Source of the DNA: a phage
Length of the DNA: 64,000 bases
Strand: one strand, 5' to 3'
Sequence record: PQ478073.1
The notes beneath the pieces are model-generated. The model saw only the letters and a program-made list of their open reading frames with translations. It searched no databases and had not been told where the DNA came from. Positions 1,302 through 23,066 of this stretch are shown here, in pieces. Made by a program: the position numbers and the translations under genes. Every line of letters starts with the position of its first letter. Position 1 is the first letter of the stretch.

Positions 1302-2033
1302 ATGGATCTACGCAACGTACTACGTGACCTCGTAAACACAACCAGTGGTATTGACTTCTCTTGTATTGCAGTAAGCAGTGAAGACCGTGGTGAAGGACAA
1401 CGTGTATATCTAGAAGCGTACACAGATGACCGAACTCTTGTAATGCGAGCATATACTAAAGAAGATGTTCCTGAAGTTCAGGGTCGTTTTGGCTTAGGTA
1501 ATCTAGGTCTTCTTCAGGGTCTAATGTCTCTAAAAACATACAGTACCGAAGGAACCACAATCACATCAAATGTTAAAGATGGTTCAGTTAAAAGTCTGGC
1601 ATTTAAATCTGAAGATGCAAGCACTACATTTATGGTACAAGCTGAAAAACTTATTCCAGTTCAACCACGTTTTCATGAACAACCATATGACGTACAGGTT
1701 ATTCCTAGTGCAGCAAAAGTTCAGGAACTAAAGAGTTTTTCTGGTGTATTTAAATCTTTTAGTTCTCTTGTAACTCCGTATACTGAAGGCGACACCCTAT
1801 ACTTTCACGTTGGTGAGAAAAACAAAAGTAACCACGTTGGTTCTCTAGCTTTTTCTAAAACTGAAGGTGAATTAGGTCTTGGTTTTGGTTATAATATTGA
1901 TCGCGTACTTCAAGCATTATCTCGCGTATCTAATGCCGAATCAGTATCACTTGGTATTACTAAAACTGGTATGCTAAATGTAACACTAGATACTGGAATT
2001 GCAGTATACAAATTTTACGTAACAGGCTGCTAA
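1302..2033 (+). CDS. 45: sliding clamp (T4 gp45-like)
   Basis: 243 aa; N-terminal NTTSGIDF and GNLGLLQGLMSL region resemble T4 gp45 (recalled from memory); GGAG RBS at 1288-1291. Confidence 0.7.
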   Translation: MDLRNVLRDLVNTTSGIDFSCIAVSSEDRGEGQRVYLEAYTDDRTLVMRAYTKEDVPEVQGRFGLGNLGLLQGLMSLKTYSTEGTTITSNVKDGSVKSLAFKSEDASTTFMVQAEKLIPVQPRFHEQPYDVQVIPSAAKVQELKSFSGVFKSFSSLVTPYTEGDTLYFHVGEKNKSNHVGSLAFSKTEGELGLGFGYNIDRVLQALSRVSNAESVSLGITKTGMLNVTLDTGIAVYKFYVTGC

Positions 2034-2041
2034 TATAAATA
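2034..2041 (+). promoter_or_regulatory. T4-late-like promoter box TATAAATA
   Basis: Exact TATAAATA directly after clamp stop. Confidence 0.4.
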
Positions 2042-2043
2042 AC

Positions 2044-2062
2044 GGGGAACACTATGTTCCCC
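2044..2062. terminator. hairpin GGGGAACA-cta-TGTTCCCC (weak T-tract)
   Basis: 8 bp perfect stem; same arms recur at 44895 and 51646. Confidence 0.4.
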
Positions 2063-2305: not shown

Positions 2306-2605
2306 ATGAAAATTAAAATGATTAATGATTACGTTCTTGTTCGACAAATTGAAGCACAGAATAAAAGTACTGGTGGTATTATTCTAGGTAATGTTGAACC
2401 ACCATGTATTGGGATGGTAATTTCCGTTGGTCCAGGTAAAATTCTTCCGAACGGACAACTTGCAGAACATAATATTAAAGAAGGTGATATGGTTGTGTTT
2501 GGTCGTTCATCTTTGAACACACCACTGACTGAAGATCTTGGTGGCGGCGAAGATACATATTATGTAATGAAAATCGAAGAGATTTTTGGTAAGAAAAATG
2601 GCTAA
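2306..2605 (+). CDS. groES: co-chaperonin GroES (cpn10) homolog
   Basis: DYVLVRQIEAQNKSTGGIILG ... GMVISVGPG ... IKEGDMVVFG matches GroES pattern; GGAGG RBS 2293-2297; first ATG of longer track ORF is internal. Confidence 0.85.
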   Translation: MKIKMINDYVLVRQIEAQNKSTGGIILGNVEPPCIGMVISVGPGKILPNGQLAEHNIKEGDMVVFGRSSLNTPLTEDLGGGEDTYYVMKIEEIFGKKNG

Positions 2606-3323
2606 AAAGAAATTTATTCCATTTTGGATGGTCCCTGCTCACTGGGGACTTTCTGGAAAGGCAAAAGAGATAGCTAAAGCATACTACTACAATGATGATT
2701 ATGAAGCTGATATGAAAGTTGCTGAATTGACATATCTAACTCCATATGAAGTTGAAGTGGCCCAATTGGATATTAAAAAGAAATATAGCGTAATTGGAGA
2801 TTTGGAATATCTAATTGCTGTACTTGATGTTGAACTAAAATATTCTAAAATTACTCGTGAACAGTATGATGTTAAAGTTCTTGATGCAAAACTAAGTATT
2901 GGAGTTATTACAGAAAAAGAATATGATATGGAAATCATTGAGTTAATGCCAGAAGGTGATGAAAAAAGGCTTAAGGCTATTGAATTTGCATATCGTTACG
3001 ATGAAATCACACAAAGTGAATATTCTAAGGAAATATACACACTTCGTAAAGAACCTTGGATTGATTTGGATGTTGTTCTTGATCCTGAAACTAATGAAGT
3101 TGAGTTTGTATTTGACTATAATGAATATTTCTGGAAAAAGTTGAAAGCTGAAGGTCATCCAGGAAATGATGAAGAAGAAATTATCGATAACTTTGTGAGA
3201 GACTTGGGGCGTAAACTTGCTACGGATGATTTCAGTGATGATTACGACACAAAGCTGGTGAGTGCGAACGAAGGATTAGACAAGCTACCTGGTTTGCCTG
3301 AAGGATTTCGTTCATATAGATAA
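2598..3323 (+). CDS. hypothetical protein (241 aa)
   Basis: First ATG of TTG-initiated track ORF; followed by bidirectional terminator. Confidence 0.55.
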   Translation: MAKKKFIPFWMVPAHWGLSGKAKEIAKAYYYNDDYEADMKVAELTYLTPYEVEVAQLDIKKKYSVIGDLEYLIAVLDVELKYSKITREQYDVKVLDAKLSIGVITEKEYDMEIIELMPEGDEKRLKAIEFAYRYDEITQSEYSKEIYTLRKEPWIDLDVVLDPETNEVEFVFDYNEYFWKKLKAEGHPGNDEEEIIDNFVRDLGRKLATDDFSDDYDTKLVSANEGLDKLPGLPEGFRSYR

Positions 3324-3330
3324 CATATAA

Positions 3331-3362
3331 AAAAAGGAGAGCAAATGCTCTCCTTTTCTTTT
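3331..3362. terminator. bidirectional rho-independent terminator
   Basis: A-tract, GGAGAGC-aaat-GCTCTCC stem, T-tract; between convergent genes. Confidence 0.8.
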
Positions 3363-3370
3363 GAAAAATA

Positions 3371-4060
3371 TTAAACCAATGCTGGGATGTATTGGAAAAG
3401 TTTAACACCGAAATCACCTGCTGCATCAGCAGATTGGGAACGTAGGTAAACTTCGGTAACACCATCTTTAGCAAGTAGTGGAACACCAGTTAGATCATCA
3501 ATTAGTAGACGGCCTTCTTCGGATTCAGTACTTGGTACACCTTGTGGTGATTTAAGATCTTTGTTAAAGACACCAGCACGTTCAACTAGGAAGGTAACAA
3601 CAGAAGCATCAGCAATACTAACTGAACCTGCACTCAATACACCATCAGGTGCGTTGGTGAAACCAGTAACTGGAAATACTTCAAGACCATTACCTGCGAT
3701 GTTAGAGGTAGCGATGATAACCGCACGTTGTTGAACAACATCGACAATACGTTTAACGTTAGTTTGTGCTGCATAAGATGCATTGTAATCAGCTTCTAGT
3801 GTGCCAAGAACAAATGCAGTTCCATCAATACGTTTGATACCTTTATCATTTAGATATGCTAGAATTTCTTCTGGAATATCAGTGTTTAGAAAACGTTGTA
3901 GACCAGCATAAGAAGAAACTGCACCAGTAACTAGAACGTTTACGTTTCCTAGCTTACTGATAGCAATGGATGCTAGGGCGTTAGTGCCACAAAAGTAACC
4001 TAGAATACGTTCAAAGGAATAACCATTGATACGTTCAAAAGAAGTATTAGTATATGACAT
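3371..4060 (-). CDS. putative late/virion protein, tandem paralog 1 (229 aa)
   Basis: Shares QQRAV..ATS and ER.GVFNK blocks with adjacent ORF; AGGAGGA RBS; Ala/Gly/Val/Thr-rich; higher GC than neighbours. Confidence 0.6.
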   Translation of the reverse strand: MSYTNTSFERINGYSFERILGYFCGTNALASIAISKLGNVNVLVTGAVSSYAGLQRFLNTDIPEEILAYLNDKGIKRIDGTAFVLGTLEADYNASYAAQTNVKRIVDVVQQRAVIIATSNIAGNGLEVFPVTGFTNAPDGVLSAGSVSIADASVVTFLVERAGVFNKDLKSPQGVPSTESEEGRLLIDDLTGVPLLAKDGVTEVYLRSQSADAAGDFGVKLFQYIPALV

Positions 4061-4074
4061 AATCTATCCTCCTA

Positions 4075-4674
4075 TTATAGTTGAACAGGAAGAGCAGCAC
4101 GTACTTTAATTGCTACAGCAGTAGATGCACCTGCATCACCAACACCATCAGTACCTTGACTTACGAAAGTTTTGGTACGGAAAACTTTAGCTTGAGCGAT
4201 AGACTTAGCTAGGTCAACAGTTGGATCAACTGGAGCAGGACATGCTGAACCAGGACGAACTTCTTGCTTGTTAAATACGTCTTGACGTTCACAGATGAAA
4301 GTCAATGCAACAGAATTAGCACCACCTGCTACATCAGCACCACTAGTGCCGAACGCAACTACGTTTGGATTAGCATTTTTGAAATCAGCAGGAATAACAA
4401 CTTCTGAATCAAGAGCTAGTAGAGAGGTAGTAACTAGAACTGCACGTTGTTGTAGTAGTTGGGTAACCATGAATAGGTTATATTGAGCATTACTTAGAGC
4501 AGTTTGATACGCTTCAGCTTGAACATCAGAACCGTCAGAAGTAACTTTGGTAGTACCTAGTTCAACATCAGTTGGTAGATCGATTACGATGGTAACGAAA
4601 CCGTTATTACCACCCCACCATTCGCGAGCAACGCTAGACATACCATAGTTACGGTTAAAAGAATTAAGACTCAT
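4075..4674 (-). CDS. putative late/virion protein, tandem paralog 2 (199 aa)
   Basis: Paralog of 3371-4060; AAGGAGA RBS 5 nt upstream of ATG. Confidence 0.6.
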   Translation of the reverse strand: MSLNSFNRNYGMSSVAREWWGGNNGFVTIVIDLPTDVELGTTKVTSDGSDVQAEAYQTALSNAQYNLFMVTQLLQQRAVLVTTSLLALDSEVVIPADFKNANPNVVAFGTSGADVAGGANSVALTFICERQDVFNKQEVRPGSACPAPVDPTVDLAKSIAQAKVFRTKTFVSQGTDGVGDAGASTAVAIKVRAALPVQL

Positions 4675-4817
4675 GAAAATCTCCTTGTCAAATTTTGTGC
4701 AGGTATATCCTGCTTAAAGTTATTTATCAAAAAATATCACTAGCATTTAAATTTACTGAGATATTTAATGAATTTCTATGATATTATTTATCAAATCTGG
4801 GAAAGTGATTCAAGATG

Positions 4818-4826
4818 TGCTATAAT
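4818..4826 (+). promoter_or_regulatory. extended -10 promoter TGcTATAAT
   Basis: Member of recurring TGTGCTATAAT family; about 65 nt upstream of RNase H ATG. Confidence 0.5.
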
Positions 4827-4835
4827 TATCAATGA

Positions 4836-10093
<5,258 letters not shown>

Positions 10094-10219: not shown

Positions 10220-11272
10220 ATGAAATCTCTAGCTGAAATTCGTGCACACCTAAAAGCAGAACAAGAAAAAGCAGAAGCTCAAAAGAATGGTACATTTACT
10301 GGCGAGCGTAAAGCTGATTCGTTCTTAGCTTTCTGGAACGTACCTTATAACGAACCACTAAACCTACGTTTTCTACCAGATGCAGATGAGTCTAACCCAT
10401 TCTTCTGGCGTGAACGTGACATGATTAACCTAACTTTCAATGGTGTAGTCGGTATGCACACTGATAAAGTTACCGTTCAAGTACCTTGTAACGAAATGTG
10501 GGTTCCTAAATCCTGTCCGGTTCTGAAAGAAGTACGTCAATGGTTCCAAAGTGCGAATGAAACAGGGAACGAAGAACTAAAAGCAATGGCTGGTCGTTAC
10601 TGGAAGAAGAAAACCTATCTAATGCAATGTTTTATTGCTCCTGATAGCGTTGCAGTAAAAGACGACATTGCACCAGAAAATCCAATTCGTCGTATTCTGG
10701 CTAACAAAGATATCTTTGATAAAGTTAAATCCATCCTGCTAAACCCAGGCATCAAAGAGTCTCCAACTCACTACGTTCAAGGTCGTGATTTTGGTATTGT
10801 TAAAACTAAGAATGGTGGTGGTTATAATAGCTACGACATGTCTCAATTCTCCATGTCTGAGCGTCCACTAAACGAAGAAGAACTAGCAGCAATTGAAAAA
10901 TATGGCCTATACAATCTAAATGATTTTATGCCAAAACAACCAACTCCAGAAGAGTTGAAAGCAATTGAAGAAATGTTCGAAGCATCAGTAAATGGTGAAG
11001 CATATGATCCAGCACGTTGGGCATTTGCATATCGTCCAGCAGGTGTACCAAAACCTAACTCTGGAACTGTTACTGAATCAAAACCAACTCCTGCTCCAGT
11101 ACAACAAGAGTCAGCACCTGCACCAGTAGCACCTACTGCTCCAGTTACACCAGCCCCACAAGCTGCTCCAGTAACTCCAGTCGCTACCCCAGCAGCAACC
11201 ACTCCTGAAGCACCAAAAGAACAACTATCTGCATCTGCACTAGTTGCTCGTTTGAAACAACAAGGTAAGTAA
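10220..11272 (+). CDS. 32: single-stranded DNA-binding protein (T4 gp32-like) with Pro/Ala/Thr-rich C-terminal tail
   Basis: LRFLPDADESNPFF resembles gp32 core (recalled); Cys cluster; AAGGA RBS; long structured leader. Confidence 0.7.
   Translation: MKSLAEIRAHLKAEQEKAEAQKNGTFTGERKADSFLAFWNVPYNEPLNLRFLPDADESNPFFWRERDMINLTFNGVVGMHTDKVTVQVPCNEMWVPKSCPVLKEVRQWFQSANETGNEELKAMAGRYWKKKTYLMQCFIAPDSVAVKDDIAPENPIRRILANKDIFDKVKSILLNPGIKESPTHYVQGRDFGIVKTKNGGGYNSYDMSQFSMSERPLNEEELAAIEKYGLYNLNDFMPKQPTPEELKAIEEMFEASVNGEAYDPARWAFAYRPAGVPKPNSGTVTESKPTPAPVQQESAPAPVAPTAPVTPAPQAAPVTPVATPAATTPEAPKEQLSASALVARLKQQGK
11090..11220 (+). repeat. imperfect short tandem repeats encoding PAPV/TPAP low-complexity tail of SSB
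   Basis: Reiterated gctccagta / cctgcaccagta units. Confidence 0.6.
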
Positions 11273-20136: not shown

Positions 20137-20153
20137 GACAAAACTAGAAGGTG

Positions 20154-20162
20154 TGCTATAAT
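20154..20162 (+). promoter_or_regulatory. extended -10 promoter TGcTATAAT
   Basis: TGTGCTATAAT family, 30 nt upstream of primase ATG. Confidence 0.5.
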
Positions 20163-20191
20163 CATTTGTAAGAAAAGACAAGGATTAACTT

Positions 20192-21247
20192 ATGAACGCT
20201 GTACAAAACATAATGGCACAAATTATGAATGATCCAGTACCTGCGATTGGTACATGGTCACAACACAACTGTCCAGCTTGTGTGTTCAGAGGACATTCAA
20301 GGCCGGATACAAAGCACCGTGGTAATCATATGTTCAATGCAGATGGTTCCGTTTCATATAACTGCTTTAACTGTAGTTTAAAAACTGGTTGGCAACCAGG
20401 AAAATATATGAGCAAAGATATGGAGTCTTTGCTCATTTCTTTTGGTGCACAAGATAAAGAAATAGAATTAGTTAAGTTTTATATTAAAGAAATGGTTGAC
20501 AGCGGTGATTTTGCTGCACAAGAAACTGTTGCATCAAAATTGTATGACCGAGTAACAGTACGTGATTTGCCATCAAATGCAAAAACATTTTGGGAATGGG
20601 CTTCTTTACCTGAAGATAAAATTCCACAAGAATTTATAAGTGTTTTGCATAATGTCAATGAAAGAAACCCATATCTGTTAGACTTAGAATTATATTGGTC
20701 ACCTAATAAAGAACATAAAATGTATGACAGATTTATTATTCCATATTTCATGAATGGTAAAATTATTGGTTATACTGCACGACATAAATTAAAAGATCCT
20801 GGAAGTACATACAGGTTCATAAATCAAGTAAGTACTAATATACTATATAACTATGATTTATTAAAAGATGAACGAATAAAAACAATTTTAGTATGTGAGG
20901 GTCCGTTAGACGCAGCATTAATGGGTGGTGTATCTGCTAATAACTTTAAATTATCAAACGTACAGATTGATGTATTAAAAGATGCACAGCAAAAAGGTAA
21001 AAAAATAGTTATTGTTCCAGATAGAGATAAAGATGGATTAATAACTATAGACCAAGCACTTGAAAATGGATTCAGTGTTTCCTTCCCAGACTTTGGTGCT
21101 GTAAGAGAAGGTAGTACAATACGTCATATCAAAGACTTTGAAGAAGCTTGTGCACGATTTGGTAGGTTATTTTGTTTACAATTAATACATGATAGTATAG
21201 TAGATGAGCCATTTTATATTAAAGCTCAAACGGATAAATGGATGTAA
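20192..21247 (+). CDS. 61: DNA primase (T4 gp61-like; zinc-binding plus TOPRIM)
   Basis: CPAC...CFNC zinc ribbon; TOPRIM VCEGPLD; AAGGA RBS. Confidence 0.85.
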   Translation: MNAVQNIMAQIMNDPVPAIGTWSQHNCPACVFRGHSRPDTKHRGNHMFNADGSVSYNCFNCSLKTGWQPGKYMSKDMESLLISFGAQDKEIELVKFYIKEMVDSGDFAAQETVASKLYDRVTVRDLPSNAKTFWEWASLPEDKIPQEFISVLHNVNERNPYLLDLELYWSPNKEHKMYDRFIIPYFMNGKIIGYTARHKLKDPGSTYRFINQVSTNILYNYDLLKDERIKTILVCEGPLDAALMGGVSANNFKLSNVQIDVLKDAQQKGKKIVIVPDRDKDGLITIDQALENGFSVSFPDFGAVREGSTIRHIKDFEEACARFGRLFCLQLIHDSIVDEPFYIKAQTDKWM

Positions 21248-21269
21248 TACATATAATGAGGGAACATAG

Positions 21270-22790
21270 ATGATTCAAAGCACAGTGGATGTGAAACAAT
21301 ATGGGATTAATGCACAACAATACTTATTATCTCAGATTTTCAGTAATCCTGATTTATATGTACGTTGTAAAAATATCCTTAAACCAGAATATTTTGATAA
21401 AACATTTCATGAAAGTATTCAATACGTGCATGATTATGCTGCAAAATATAGTTCATCACCTACTTTGAAAGATATTGAAGTTAAAGGTGGTTATCAATAC
21501 GATCAATATGAAGTTCAAGAATTACATAAACAATCAGTACTTGATACCTGTGGTGAATTTTGTCGCCATAAAGCATTAGCTTTAGCCGTTGAAAAAGGAA
21601 TGGAACTTGTCCATCAGAAAAAATATGGTGGAATCGAAGAACTAATCCGAGAAGCAATGTTGGTAACGGTACAGAATGAGTTAGGTTTGGATATTTTTGA
21701 AAACCCTGAAGATACAATCCGCTCACTCAGTACAATGCAAGGATCATTTAAGAGTGGTTGGGAAACTCTTGATTACAAACTTTTCGGTGGATTTGGGCGT
21801 AGAGAGTTAGAGATCTTTGCTGCTGCATCAGGTGGTGGTAAATCAGTAGTACTGCAAAATTTAGCAGTTAACTTTGCGAAAGCTGGAATGAATGGTGCAT
21901 ACATTTCACTTGAACTAGCTGAAGAGTTGGTTGCTGTTCGTATCTATGGTATGATGACTGAATCAAAACTCAGTAACGTAAAAAATGAAGCTGAAAAGAT
22001 TGGATTTGCTGTTAAAGTTGAAGGTAAAAACAGTGGTATGTTGCGTATTAAACGCTTACCTGAATCTGTAACAACCACAGACGATATTGAAAGTTATCTA
22101 CGTGAATTACAAATTAAGATGGAAATCAAACTTGATTATGTATGCGTGGACTATTTGGATCTATTAACTTCTAATCGTCTTGGACCAAATGATAAATCCA
22201 ATACATTTACTAAAGATAAATTTGTATCAGAAGAATTACGTGCTCTTGCATCCAAAATGGATTTGACTGTTTTCACTGCATCTCAGTTTAACCGTAGTGG
22301 TATGGACGAAGATAAGAAAAGTCAAAGTCAGATTGCTGGTGGTATTTCAAAAATTTATACTGCTGATAACGTAATTTATATTGAAGCAAAAAAAGAAACT
22401 GGCGAACTATGGTTTGATTTCCAAAAAACACGTAACAGTAGTGCAGTAGGTTCCCGTTTGCGTATGTCTTATGATATTGATTCATTGAGAGTTCTTGACC
22501 ATGCAACTACAGTACAACAAATGGAAACCGAAGGTAATGGATTCCGTCACAGCGGTGTTTCTAAGATTGGTGGAGGGAACATGGCGTTACCACCCAGCAC
22601 TATGCAAACATTACGTCATTCGCTTTCTGGTGCAGCTAAATCACCATCTGTGCAACCTGACAATACAGTAACACTAAATACTGATAGTGCTCCTAACTCT
22701 ACGACACAAAACGAAATACAGAATCCACAGACACATGCTGGTACTGATCGTGTTCATGCAATGAAGCAATGGTTAAATCAAAGGAAATGA
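21270..22790 (+). CDS. 41: replicative DNA helicase (DnaB family, T4 gp41-like)
   Basis: Walker A SGGGKS, DnaB-like C-terminal domain; disordered C-terminal extension. Confidence 0.9.
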   Translation: MIQSTVDVKQYGINAQQYLLSQIFSNPDLYVRCKNILKPEYFDKTFHESIQYVHDYAAKYSSSPTLKDIEVKGGYQYDQYEVQELHKQSVLDTCGEFCRHKALALAVEKGMELVHQKKYGGIEELIREAMLVTVQNELGLDIFENPEDTIRSLSTMQGSFKSGWETLDYKLFGGFGRRELEIFAAASGGGKSVVLQNLAVNFAKAGMNGAYISLELAEELVAVRIYGMMTESKLSNVKNEAEKIGFAVKVEGKNSGMLRIKRLPESVTTTDDIESYLRELQIKMEIKLDYVCVDYLDLLTSNRLGPNDKSNTFTKDKFVSEELRALASKMDLTVFTASQFNRSGMDEDKKSQSQIAGGISKIYTADNVIYIEAKKETGELWFDFQKTRNSSAVGSRLRMSYDIDSLRVLDHATTVQQMETEGNGFRHSGVSKIGGGNMALPPSTMQTLRHSLSGAAKSPSVQPDNTVTLNTDSAPNSTTQNEIQNPQTHAGTDRVHAMKQWLNQRK

Positions 22791-22793
22791 TAA

Positions 22794-23066
22794 ATGTCTA
22801 GTAAATCCAATAAAAAGAATCTACTTGATAGTATAGTTGACTATACGCCAGAGAAAGATACATTACAGAGTTTTAGTAATCGTGCCGACCACGCAATAAA
22901 CTCTGTGATTCATTTATTGGAGAGCATTGAAGATGAGTTTAACCAAACTGATGCTGAAGATTTAAAAAAACGCTTATTTCTAAGTATAAAAAACCGAGAT
23001 TATAAAAAGTTTCAAAAAGGGTTAGAGAATATAGCACTTGATGAAAAACGTAATAAAGGAAATTAA
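22794..23066 (+). CDS. hypothetical protein (90 aa)
   Basis: AAGGA RBS. Confidence 0.5.
   Translation: MSSKSNKKNLLDSIVDYTPEKDTLQSFSNRADHAINSVIHLLESIEDEFNQTDAEDLKKRLFLSIKNRDYKKFQKGLENIALDEKRNKGN

Follow-up and report, generated by a model that had tools for sequence, protein, structure and literature searches.

A conserved, probably late two-gene cassette with a covarying leader hairpin encodes paralogous virion proteins in Asteriusvirus phages, candidates for the outer capsid layer

Two adjacent minus-strand open reading frames (ORFs) at positions 3371-4674 of a 64,000-nucleotide stretch of phage DNA (sequence record PQ478073.1; this whole stretch is called the window below) encode a pair of paralogous virion proteins, which are probably produced from one compact late operon. 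The window is Asteriusvirus DNA, i.e., it comes from a jumbo myovirus of the PBECO4/121Q/phAPEC6 type in the 'Rak2-like' group, and its segment 3200-5000 is 99-100% identical to about 20 Asteriusvirus genomes (PBECO4, phAPEC6, slurp01, G17, Sharanji and others), which are those of jumbo myoviruses and measure roughly 350 kb. In the explanation that we favor, with moderate confidence in its parts taken jointly (operon, mechanism, virion products and outer-capsid placement), two ATAAATA boxes, a hairpin, two strong ribosome-binding sites and a bidirectional terminator form a two-gene late cassette. The elements of the region are as follows (positions in the window):

4777-4795, minus strand: distal late-promoter-like box, with TTTGATAAATAA at 4784-4795 and the 15-mer ATAAATAATATCATA at 4777-4791
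4720-4731, minus strand: proximal late-promoter-like box TTTGATAAATAA, the ATAAATA core of which begins 53 nt 5' of the ATG
4699-4713, minus strand: conserved stem-loop GCAGG-AUAUA-CCUGC (GCAGGTATATCCTGC), beginning 7 nt 3' of the proximal box
4680-4686, minus strand: Shine-Dalgarno sequence AAGGAGA of gene 1, 5 nt 5' of the ATG at 4674
4075-4674, minus strand: gene 1, the short paralog (199 aa, 20.9 kDa, pI 4.8)
4067-4073, minus strand: Shine-Dalgarno sequence AGGAGGA of gene 2, 6 nt 5' of the ATG at 4060 and within the 14-nt spacer 3' of the gene 1 stop
3371-4060, minus strand: gene 2, the long paralog (229 aa, 24.3 kDa, pI 4.6)
3329-3360, both strands: intrinsic terminator with a 14-pair stem flanked by A and T runs

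The identity of the pair is clear from its relatives. Gene 1 corresponds to phAPEC6 gp210, PBECO4 gp504, 121Q 618, RaK2 gp107w and CBB_271, gene 2 corresponds to phAPEC6 gp211, PBECO4 gp505, RaK2 gp106w and CBB_270, and GAP32_265/GAP32_264 form a further ortholog pair. These proteins are identical to those of the window within Asteriusvirus (the computed masses of 20.92 and 24.30 kDa are those of phAPEC6 gp210 and gp211) or are orthologs at 50-70% identity, and they share the tandem order and the neighbors, RNase H and GroES, between which they lie, so that no difference separates the window pair from the known ones and they are the same thing. A preliminary description, made from the letters of the window, had placed two ORFs of 199 and 229 aa on the minus strand at exactly these coordinates and had taken their products to be abundant virion proteins, which agrees with published mass spectrometry of the identical phAPEC6 proteins and of the CBB and RaK2 orthologs. 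In phAPEC6 virions, gp210 and gp211 were detected with 69.8 and 69.9% sequence coverage, compared with 74.9% for the major capsid protein and 68.0% for the sheath (PMC7247149). For the CBB orthologs the coverage was 56.4 and 91.3%, and the second value was the highest among 55 virion proteins (PMC5259590). RaK2 gp106w and gp107w were found in virions as well, where they were called abundant and 'distantly related' to each other, were discussed together with the sheath and a tail-fibre protein, and ran uncleaved at their full predicted mass (PMC3622015). The virion-protein reading is thus correct, already known and ordinary biology. The role of the pair has been left open in the literature, or a tail tube has been suggested, and public records carry the conflicting product names 'hemagglutinin repeat-containing', 'recombination protein', 'hypothetical' and 'virion structural protein'. 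The names 'hemagglutinin repeat-containing' and 'recombination protein' are unsupported; scans of both proteins against Pfam and NCBIfam gave no real match, and the former label was not reproduced.

Paralogy of the two proteins had been proposed from the shared blocks QQRAVLVTTS/QQRAVIIATS and ERQDVFNK/ERAGVFNK, and it holds: BLASTP aligns the two with 35% identity over 89 aa (E = 8e-9), covering both blocks, and each ORF matches the profile of phrog_9326 ('virion structural protein') over its full length (E = 1.3e-86 and 4.5e-86). The paralogs can be aligned from end to end, with 14 columns invariant among 21 family members, and the long one consists of the shared core plus an insertion of about 30 residues, which forms two helices in the model. 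The family is small (43 clusters in a profile search of 1.84 billion proteins or representatives), and no link to an annotated family emerged, as 10 of 10 distant relatives scanned belong to PHROG 9326 itself. The order of the pair is constant in about 20 loci from several genera, that is, in every Rak2-like locus examined, and no extra family copies were found within the window or in a further 170 kb of Asteriusvirus DNA. Since both copies are kept in a fixed order across the Rak2-like loci, the duplication must be old and both copies needed, and the paralogs therefore probably work together, perhaps as a hetero-oligomer. Vibrio phage 2.275.O has three tandem family members instead of two (segment L007, 1135-3206), the first of which is preceded by its own ATAAATA box and by a hairpin of different stem sequence.

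The AlphaFold2 models of the gene 1 and gene 2 products (pLDDT 81.3 and 80.7, respectively; pTM 0.79 for both) are confident and show globular alpha/beta sandwiches with a long helix, to which the long paralog adds two helices. The Ig-like or tube fold suggested earlier is absent from the models: neither has a solved structural relative, and matches in BFVD, a viral structure library, are confined to family members and to weak ones among uncharacterised jumbo-phage proteins. Both proteins begin with an arm of about 23 residues; its sequence is invariant, but the model has low confidence there, as would be expected of a segment that becomes ordered only within an assembly.

Upstream of gene 1, the two TTGATAAATAA copies described before are present, at 4720-4730 and 4784-4794 rather than at 4722-4732 and 4783-4793. 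They are the only two copies in the 64 kb, where 0.27 are expected and at least two copies arise in 5 of 100 shuffles, and they belong to boxes that form a 12-nt direct repeat with a spacing of 64 nt. The 15-mer ATAAATAATATCATA occurs, in the 234 kb examined, only at the distal box and upstream of the major capsid gene. Upstream boxes at matching positions are found in RaK2 (-122) and in CBB and GAP32 (-127/-128), and the proximal box, at -53, matches in its position the ATAAATA that precedes the genes for capsid (-52), scaffold (-54), sheath (-57) and tube (-42). ATAAATA was earlier proposed as the late promoter of Rak2-like phages (PMC5259590). In common with the T4 late promoters TATAAATA, which depend on gp55, the boxes have an ATAAATA core, here 39-57 nt 5' of late gene starts, and the T4-type consensus is approached by GATAAATA, which is found twice upstream of the pair with a 7/8 match. 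The phage also encodes a gp55-like late sigma factor, as used in T4 late transcription (PBECO4 gp530; phrog_12791, 3.4e-154; phrog_234, 'late sigma transcription factor', 8.4e-18), from a gene outside the window. The boxes differ from a T4 late promoter in that their first base is G instead of T and that two of them stand in tandem, 64 nt apart; moreover, the CBB authors found no homologs of gp33 and gp45 of the T4 late system in CBB (PMC5259590). As in T4-type late promoters, in which the box lies at about -10, no -35 element accompanies the boxes. On the same strand of the spacer there is a single sigma-70-like match, a weak one (9/12) at 4867-4838, upstream of both boxes, and such matches are no more frequent in the region than in shuffles. 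The late expression that the preliminary description had assumed is supported by the ATAAATA positions and the gp55-like sigma factor, from which we infer it; RNA-seq or other transcript data for Rak2-like phages were looked for, and none were found.

Within the window as a whole, KATAAATA is depleted, with 10 sites against 17.4 expected and 98 of 100 shuffles holding at least as many, which is compatible with selection against stray late promoters. Another GATAAATA stands at 8705-8712 on the plus strand, 37 nt 5' of the gene for a 428-aa virion protein (8742-10028; phrog_13484), and is probably a further late promoter within the packaging and replication block. At 2034-2062 (plus strand), TATAAATA is followed directly by a strong hairpin, GGGGAACA-CUA-UGUUCCCC (-13.3 kcal/mol), which is a terminator in the G17 record, so that a late box and a terminator overlap 5' of the zinc-ribbon, GroES and gp506 genes.

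Between the proximal box and the Shine-Dalgarno sequence of gene 1 lies the inverted repeat GCAGGTATATCCTGC, which had been noted as a perfect palindrome at 4704-4718; the repeat exists, at 4699-4713, and is not a perfect 15-nt palindrome, having 5-bp arms (GCAGG/CCTGC) and a 5-nt loop. A hairpin as GC-rich was seen in none of 2000 spacer shuffles, and the 58-nt leader folds with -12.8 kcal/mol (z = -2.9). The leaders of about 20 loci from several genera keep the box, a fixed spacer of 6-7 nt, the stem-loop, an A-rich tract and GGAGA, and both ATAAATA and GGAGA are invariant in 14 of 14 aligned leaders, which come from different genera. In the alignment test, 95.9% of the cells were paired, five of the six pairs had changed on both sides and no shuffle out of 500 performed as well, and the highest value in slid controls was 38.7%; RNAalifold recovered the same stem. 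RaK2 (GUAAG/CUUAC) and two Vibrio phage leaders have changed both sides of the stem and kept the pairing, and neither the length nor the sequence of the loop is constant in the alignment. Because the arms change together and the loop is free in both respects, the pattern at 4699-4713 fits an RNA stem rather than a DNA operator. The repeat could alternatively act as duplex DNA to which a regulator binds, or have arisen by chance, as it sits between a promoter-like box and a ribosome-binding site, which is a common operator location, and as GCAGG/CCTGC is identical in most relatives. We regard this as very unlikely, since the arms covary in the three leaders just named, a spacer of variable length and sequence is tolerable for an RNA stem but not for a dimeric DNA-binding protein, and both sets of shuffles argue against chance.

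At T4 late promoters, transcription starts a few bases after the box. With a T4-like spacing, the proximal start is predicted at about 4714-4715, one or two bases 5' of the stem, and the stem would therefore be a 5'-terminal hairpin. Stem-loops at the very 5' end protect bacterial messages of the ompA type, and the counterpart in the window would resemble them in being short, stable and only 1-2 nt from the predicted 5' end of a very highly expressed message, with conserved pairing and a loop that is free to vary. Two other accounts of the leader were tried and rejected. Hairpins are not a general feature of the late leaders of this phage, for which the mean folding energy is -3.1 kcal/mol, compared with -2.4 kcal/mol for random segments. 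In the model described for T4 soc and e, the Shine-Dalgarno sequence is hidden in long transcripts and freed in late ones (PMC3014915); here, the 124-nt leader that begins at the distal box folds locally as the 58-nt leader does, and in its folding no upstream segment pairs with the Shine-Dalgarno sequence of gene 1. A weak stem is predicted at 4664-4683 (minus strand), in which GGAGAUU of the Shine-Dalgarno region pairs with the first codons (AUGAGUCUU); both of its parts are conserved anyway, for translation and coding, respectively.

The two ribosome-binding sites, AAGGAGA and AGGAGGA, are both present as described earlier. Downstream of gene 2, the stem of the terminator is followed by TTTTTTT, and it is the only such site in 3200-5000; it is shared with the convergent plus-strand gene 2586-3323, is usable in both directions and is also annotated in the record of phage G17. 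The cassette most likely works in the following way. Host RNA polymerase, carrying the gp55-like late sigma factor of the phage, most likely starts at the two tandem ATAAATA boxes; transcripts from the proximal start would carry the 5-bp stem-loop as a 5'-terminal hairpin that shields the message from 5'-end-dependent decay; the two strong Shine-Dalgarno sites, together with capsid-like codon usage, would lead to both paralogs being made in very large and roughly equal amounts; the bidirectional terminator, which is seen in the sequence, would end the transcript; and the acidic 21 and 24 kDa proteins enter the virion, as the published mass spectrometry and gels show.

The composition of the two genes bears on their expression. 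They are rich in Ala (10.5-12.6%), Gly (7.5-9.2%) and Val (10.5-12.6%), as had been pointed out, compared with 5.1, 5.3 and 6.7% in the other ORFs, and they are GC-rich: with 41.8 and 39.6% GC (mean 33.8%), they come second and third among the 80 ORFs of the window. To read this GC-richness as a sign of high expression was wrong as stated: the extra GC is confined to codon positions 1 and 2 and therefore reflects amino-acid composition, GC3 being 19.1 and 18.3%, under the mean of 22.9%, and it is codon choice that carries the expression signal. The codon usage is indeed distinct, with effective codon numbers (Nc) of 30.1 and 30.5, the two lowest among the 80 ORFs. CTA makes up 68-73% of the Leu codons, TTA, AGA and ATA are absent, and CGT, GGT, ACT/ACC and ATC are preferred. 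The same signature is found in the capsid, scaffold, sheath and SSB genes, whereas the portal, terminase, gp543 and two tube-like genes are without it and the best tube candidate has an intermediate bias (Nc 38.5). Since the signature is shared with the capsid gene and is absent or intermediate in tube candidates, the pair belongs to the capsid-protein class of expression and not to the tail class.

Among the Leu codons of E. coli, CTA is the rarest. In those phage genes that have the highest expression it accounts for 54-80% of Leu codons, against 21% elsewhere, the genes with high CTA being:

3371-4674: the pair
10220-11272 of the window: the SSB gene
3252-4427 of segment L008: the capsid gene
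20149-22812 of segment L009: the sheath gene

Adaptation to the tRNAs of the phage was considered as a source of the bias and rejected, as the pattern is the opposite: the seven phage tRNAs read ACA, AGA, TCA, GGA, AGT, AAY and AUG, the pair avoids the A-ending codons among them, the listed genes as a group avoid codons that these tRNAs read, and no tRNA-Leu that could explain the preference for CTA is among the seven. The tRNA annotated as Met(cat) in Sharanji (segment L031, 3374-3463, minus strand) is 90 nt long; as its sequence reads, the variable arm is long, the discriminator base is A and the CCA end is encoded, i.e., it has a type II body, which is unusual for a Met or Ile tRNA.

As to the place of the two proteins in the particle, we tentatively suggest, with confidence a little short of even, that the pair builds the accessory layer on the outside of the T=28 capsid. 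In cryo-EM of phAPEC6 and 121Q, a hexagonal network on the outer surface is made up of an elongated protein that is equimolar with the capsid protein and that 'cannot be assigned', and a further protein occupies the hexamer centers. The capsid role of the pair is most likely one of these two, either the elongated cement protein or the hexamer-center protein. The capsid protein of this phage is gp23-like and about 70 residues shorter than T4 gp23 in one internal stretch, which we take to be possibly the gp23 insertion domain; no solved chain nearer to it than T4-type gp23 (~1e-40) was found, and the capsid protein of phiKp24 differs from it. It is possible, though somewhat less likely than not in this full form, that the paralogs together make the hexagonal cement lattice (and perhaps the hexamer-center protein), with an alpha/beta fold unrelated to that of any solved decoration protein, and stand in for the roughly 70 residues absent relative to T4 gp23. 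The outer capsid layer is our best guess because the proteins are highly abundant and unprocessed, have capsid-class codon bias and a capsid-type promoter, and carry an interaction-prone arm.

Decoration proteins such as T4 Soc and Hoc, lambda gpD, phage L Dec and T5 pb10 are likewise small, abundant and unprocessed, and those of T4 are made from late promoters and encoded away from the main head gene cluster. T4 soc is a late transcript (PMC3014915), and proteins of this kind would match the role of the outer layer on the 121Q and phAPEC6 capsids. The window pair differs from them in comprising two paralogs and not one protein, in that its capsid location is a proposal, and in having no sequence or fold similarity to any of the five; searches for a solved decoration protein (Hoc, Soc, gpD, Dec and others) that is homologous or has the same fold gave nothing. 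Several points weigh against the explanation given above. The fold is unlike any known decoration protein, the support for the capsid placement is indirect, and copy number is poorly reflected by sequence coverage. Other small proteins with high coverage in phAPEC6, namely gp347 (75%), gp306c (66%) and gp253 (66%), compete for the outer layer (PMC7247149), and the phAPEC6 authors leave room for the ridge being formed by the capsid protein itself, as an additional domain. Furthermore, the covariation of the hairpin is supported by few independent lineages (RaK2 and the two Vibrio phage leaders), and late timing, start sites and a hairpin at the very 5' end are predictions.

A different placement was proposed in 2013 by the RaK2 authors, who suggested that one paralog is the tail tube subunit, prompted by its size of 21-24 kDa, its abundance and its predicted beta content at a time when no tube gene had been found (PMC3622015). 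Tube proteins of the T4 gp19 type are indeed similar in size and abundance and, like the RaK2 orthologs, run uncleaved. However, the pair matches no tube PHROG or Pfam family, does not show the tube fold (a beta-sandwich with a flanking helix) in its models, shares no homology with gp19 and lies far from the tail module rather than beside the sheath gene, and in codon bias it surpasses the tube candidates and equals the capsid gene. Better candidates exist in PBECO4 gp019-021, which adjoin the sheath gene gp022 and match tail-tube PHROGs (phrog_4542, 5e-86; phrog_45, 5e-4). The proposal of 2013 is weakened by gp019-021, and the pair is probably not the tail tube, a role that we now consider highly improbable for either paralog.

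Tail-, neck- or fibre-associated accessory proteins, such as elongated collar or distal-tail decorations or anchors of 'hairy' fibres, would be a further option, as phAPEC6 tails bear unassigned decoration proteins and three rings of fibres. Tail decorations number about 12 per ring on two levels, a poor fit with top-ranked coverage and a codon bias of the capsid class. Conservation of the pair is no weaker in RaK2 and GAP32, the reports on which mention no tail hairs, and its models are globular alpha/beta and not fibrous. This option is therefore rather unlikely. The pair might also belong inside the head, for example in the inner body of 91 x 18 nm that bubblegrams revealed in phAPEC6 and 121Q and whose proteins were not identified. 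Both paralogs are acidic, and inner-body proteins are abundant in phiKZ. Against an internal position, proteins inside the heads of T4 and phiKZ undergo cleavage by the prohead protease. The RaK2 orthologs, in contrast, migrate at their full predicted mass (PMC3622015), the N-terminal arm is conserved with no sign of a removable targeting peptide, and there is no similarity to the reported inner-body proteins of phiKZ, which makes an internal role distinctly unlikely.

The genes around the pair (polymerase, GroES, RNase H, terminase and SSB) are on the plus strand, opposed to it. The start of the RNase H gene (4842-5879, plus strand) differs among the PBECO4, G17 and phAPEC6 records. Just 3' of the DNA polymerase gene, ORF 1302-2033 (plus strand, 243 aa) ranks fourth of 80 in GC content and belongs to a PHROG of unknown function; its product was reported in phAPEC6 virions as gp215c (PMC7247149). 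Its size would fit a sliding clamp, a protein that the CBB authors looked for in their related phage without success, and a PDB sequence search with this clamp-sized ORF gave no match.

Beyond the known biology of these virion proteins, the present analysis corrects the coordinates, describes a conserved cassette whose 5' hairpin covaries, speaks against the label of tail tube and puts forward the hypothesis of a capsid cement. These results bear on a modest but concrete point, namely the protein make-up of the outer layer in the largest isometric capsids of coliphages, and on whether the old tail-tube guess should be dropped from annotation. If the pair is indeed a capsid cement, it would represent a new fold among decoration proteins and would lend itself naturally to display on a T=28 particle. 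The combination of promoter, hairpin, ribosome-binding site and terminator would be a compact and conserved high-output late cassette, which may be reusable in phage engineering.

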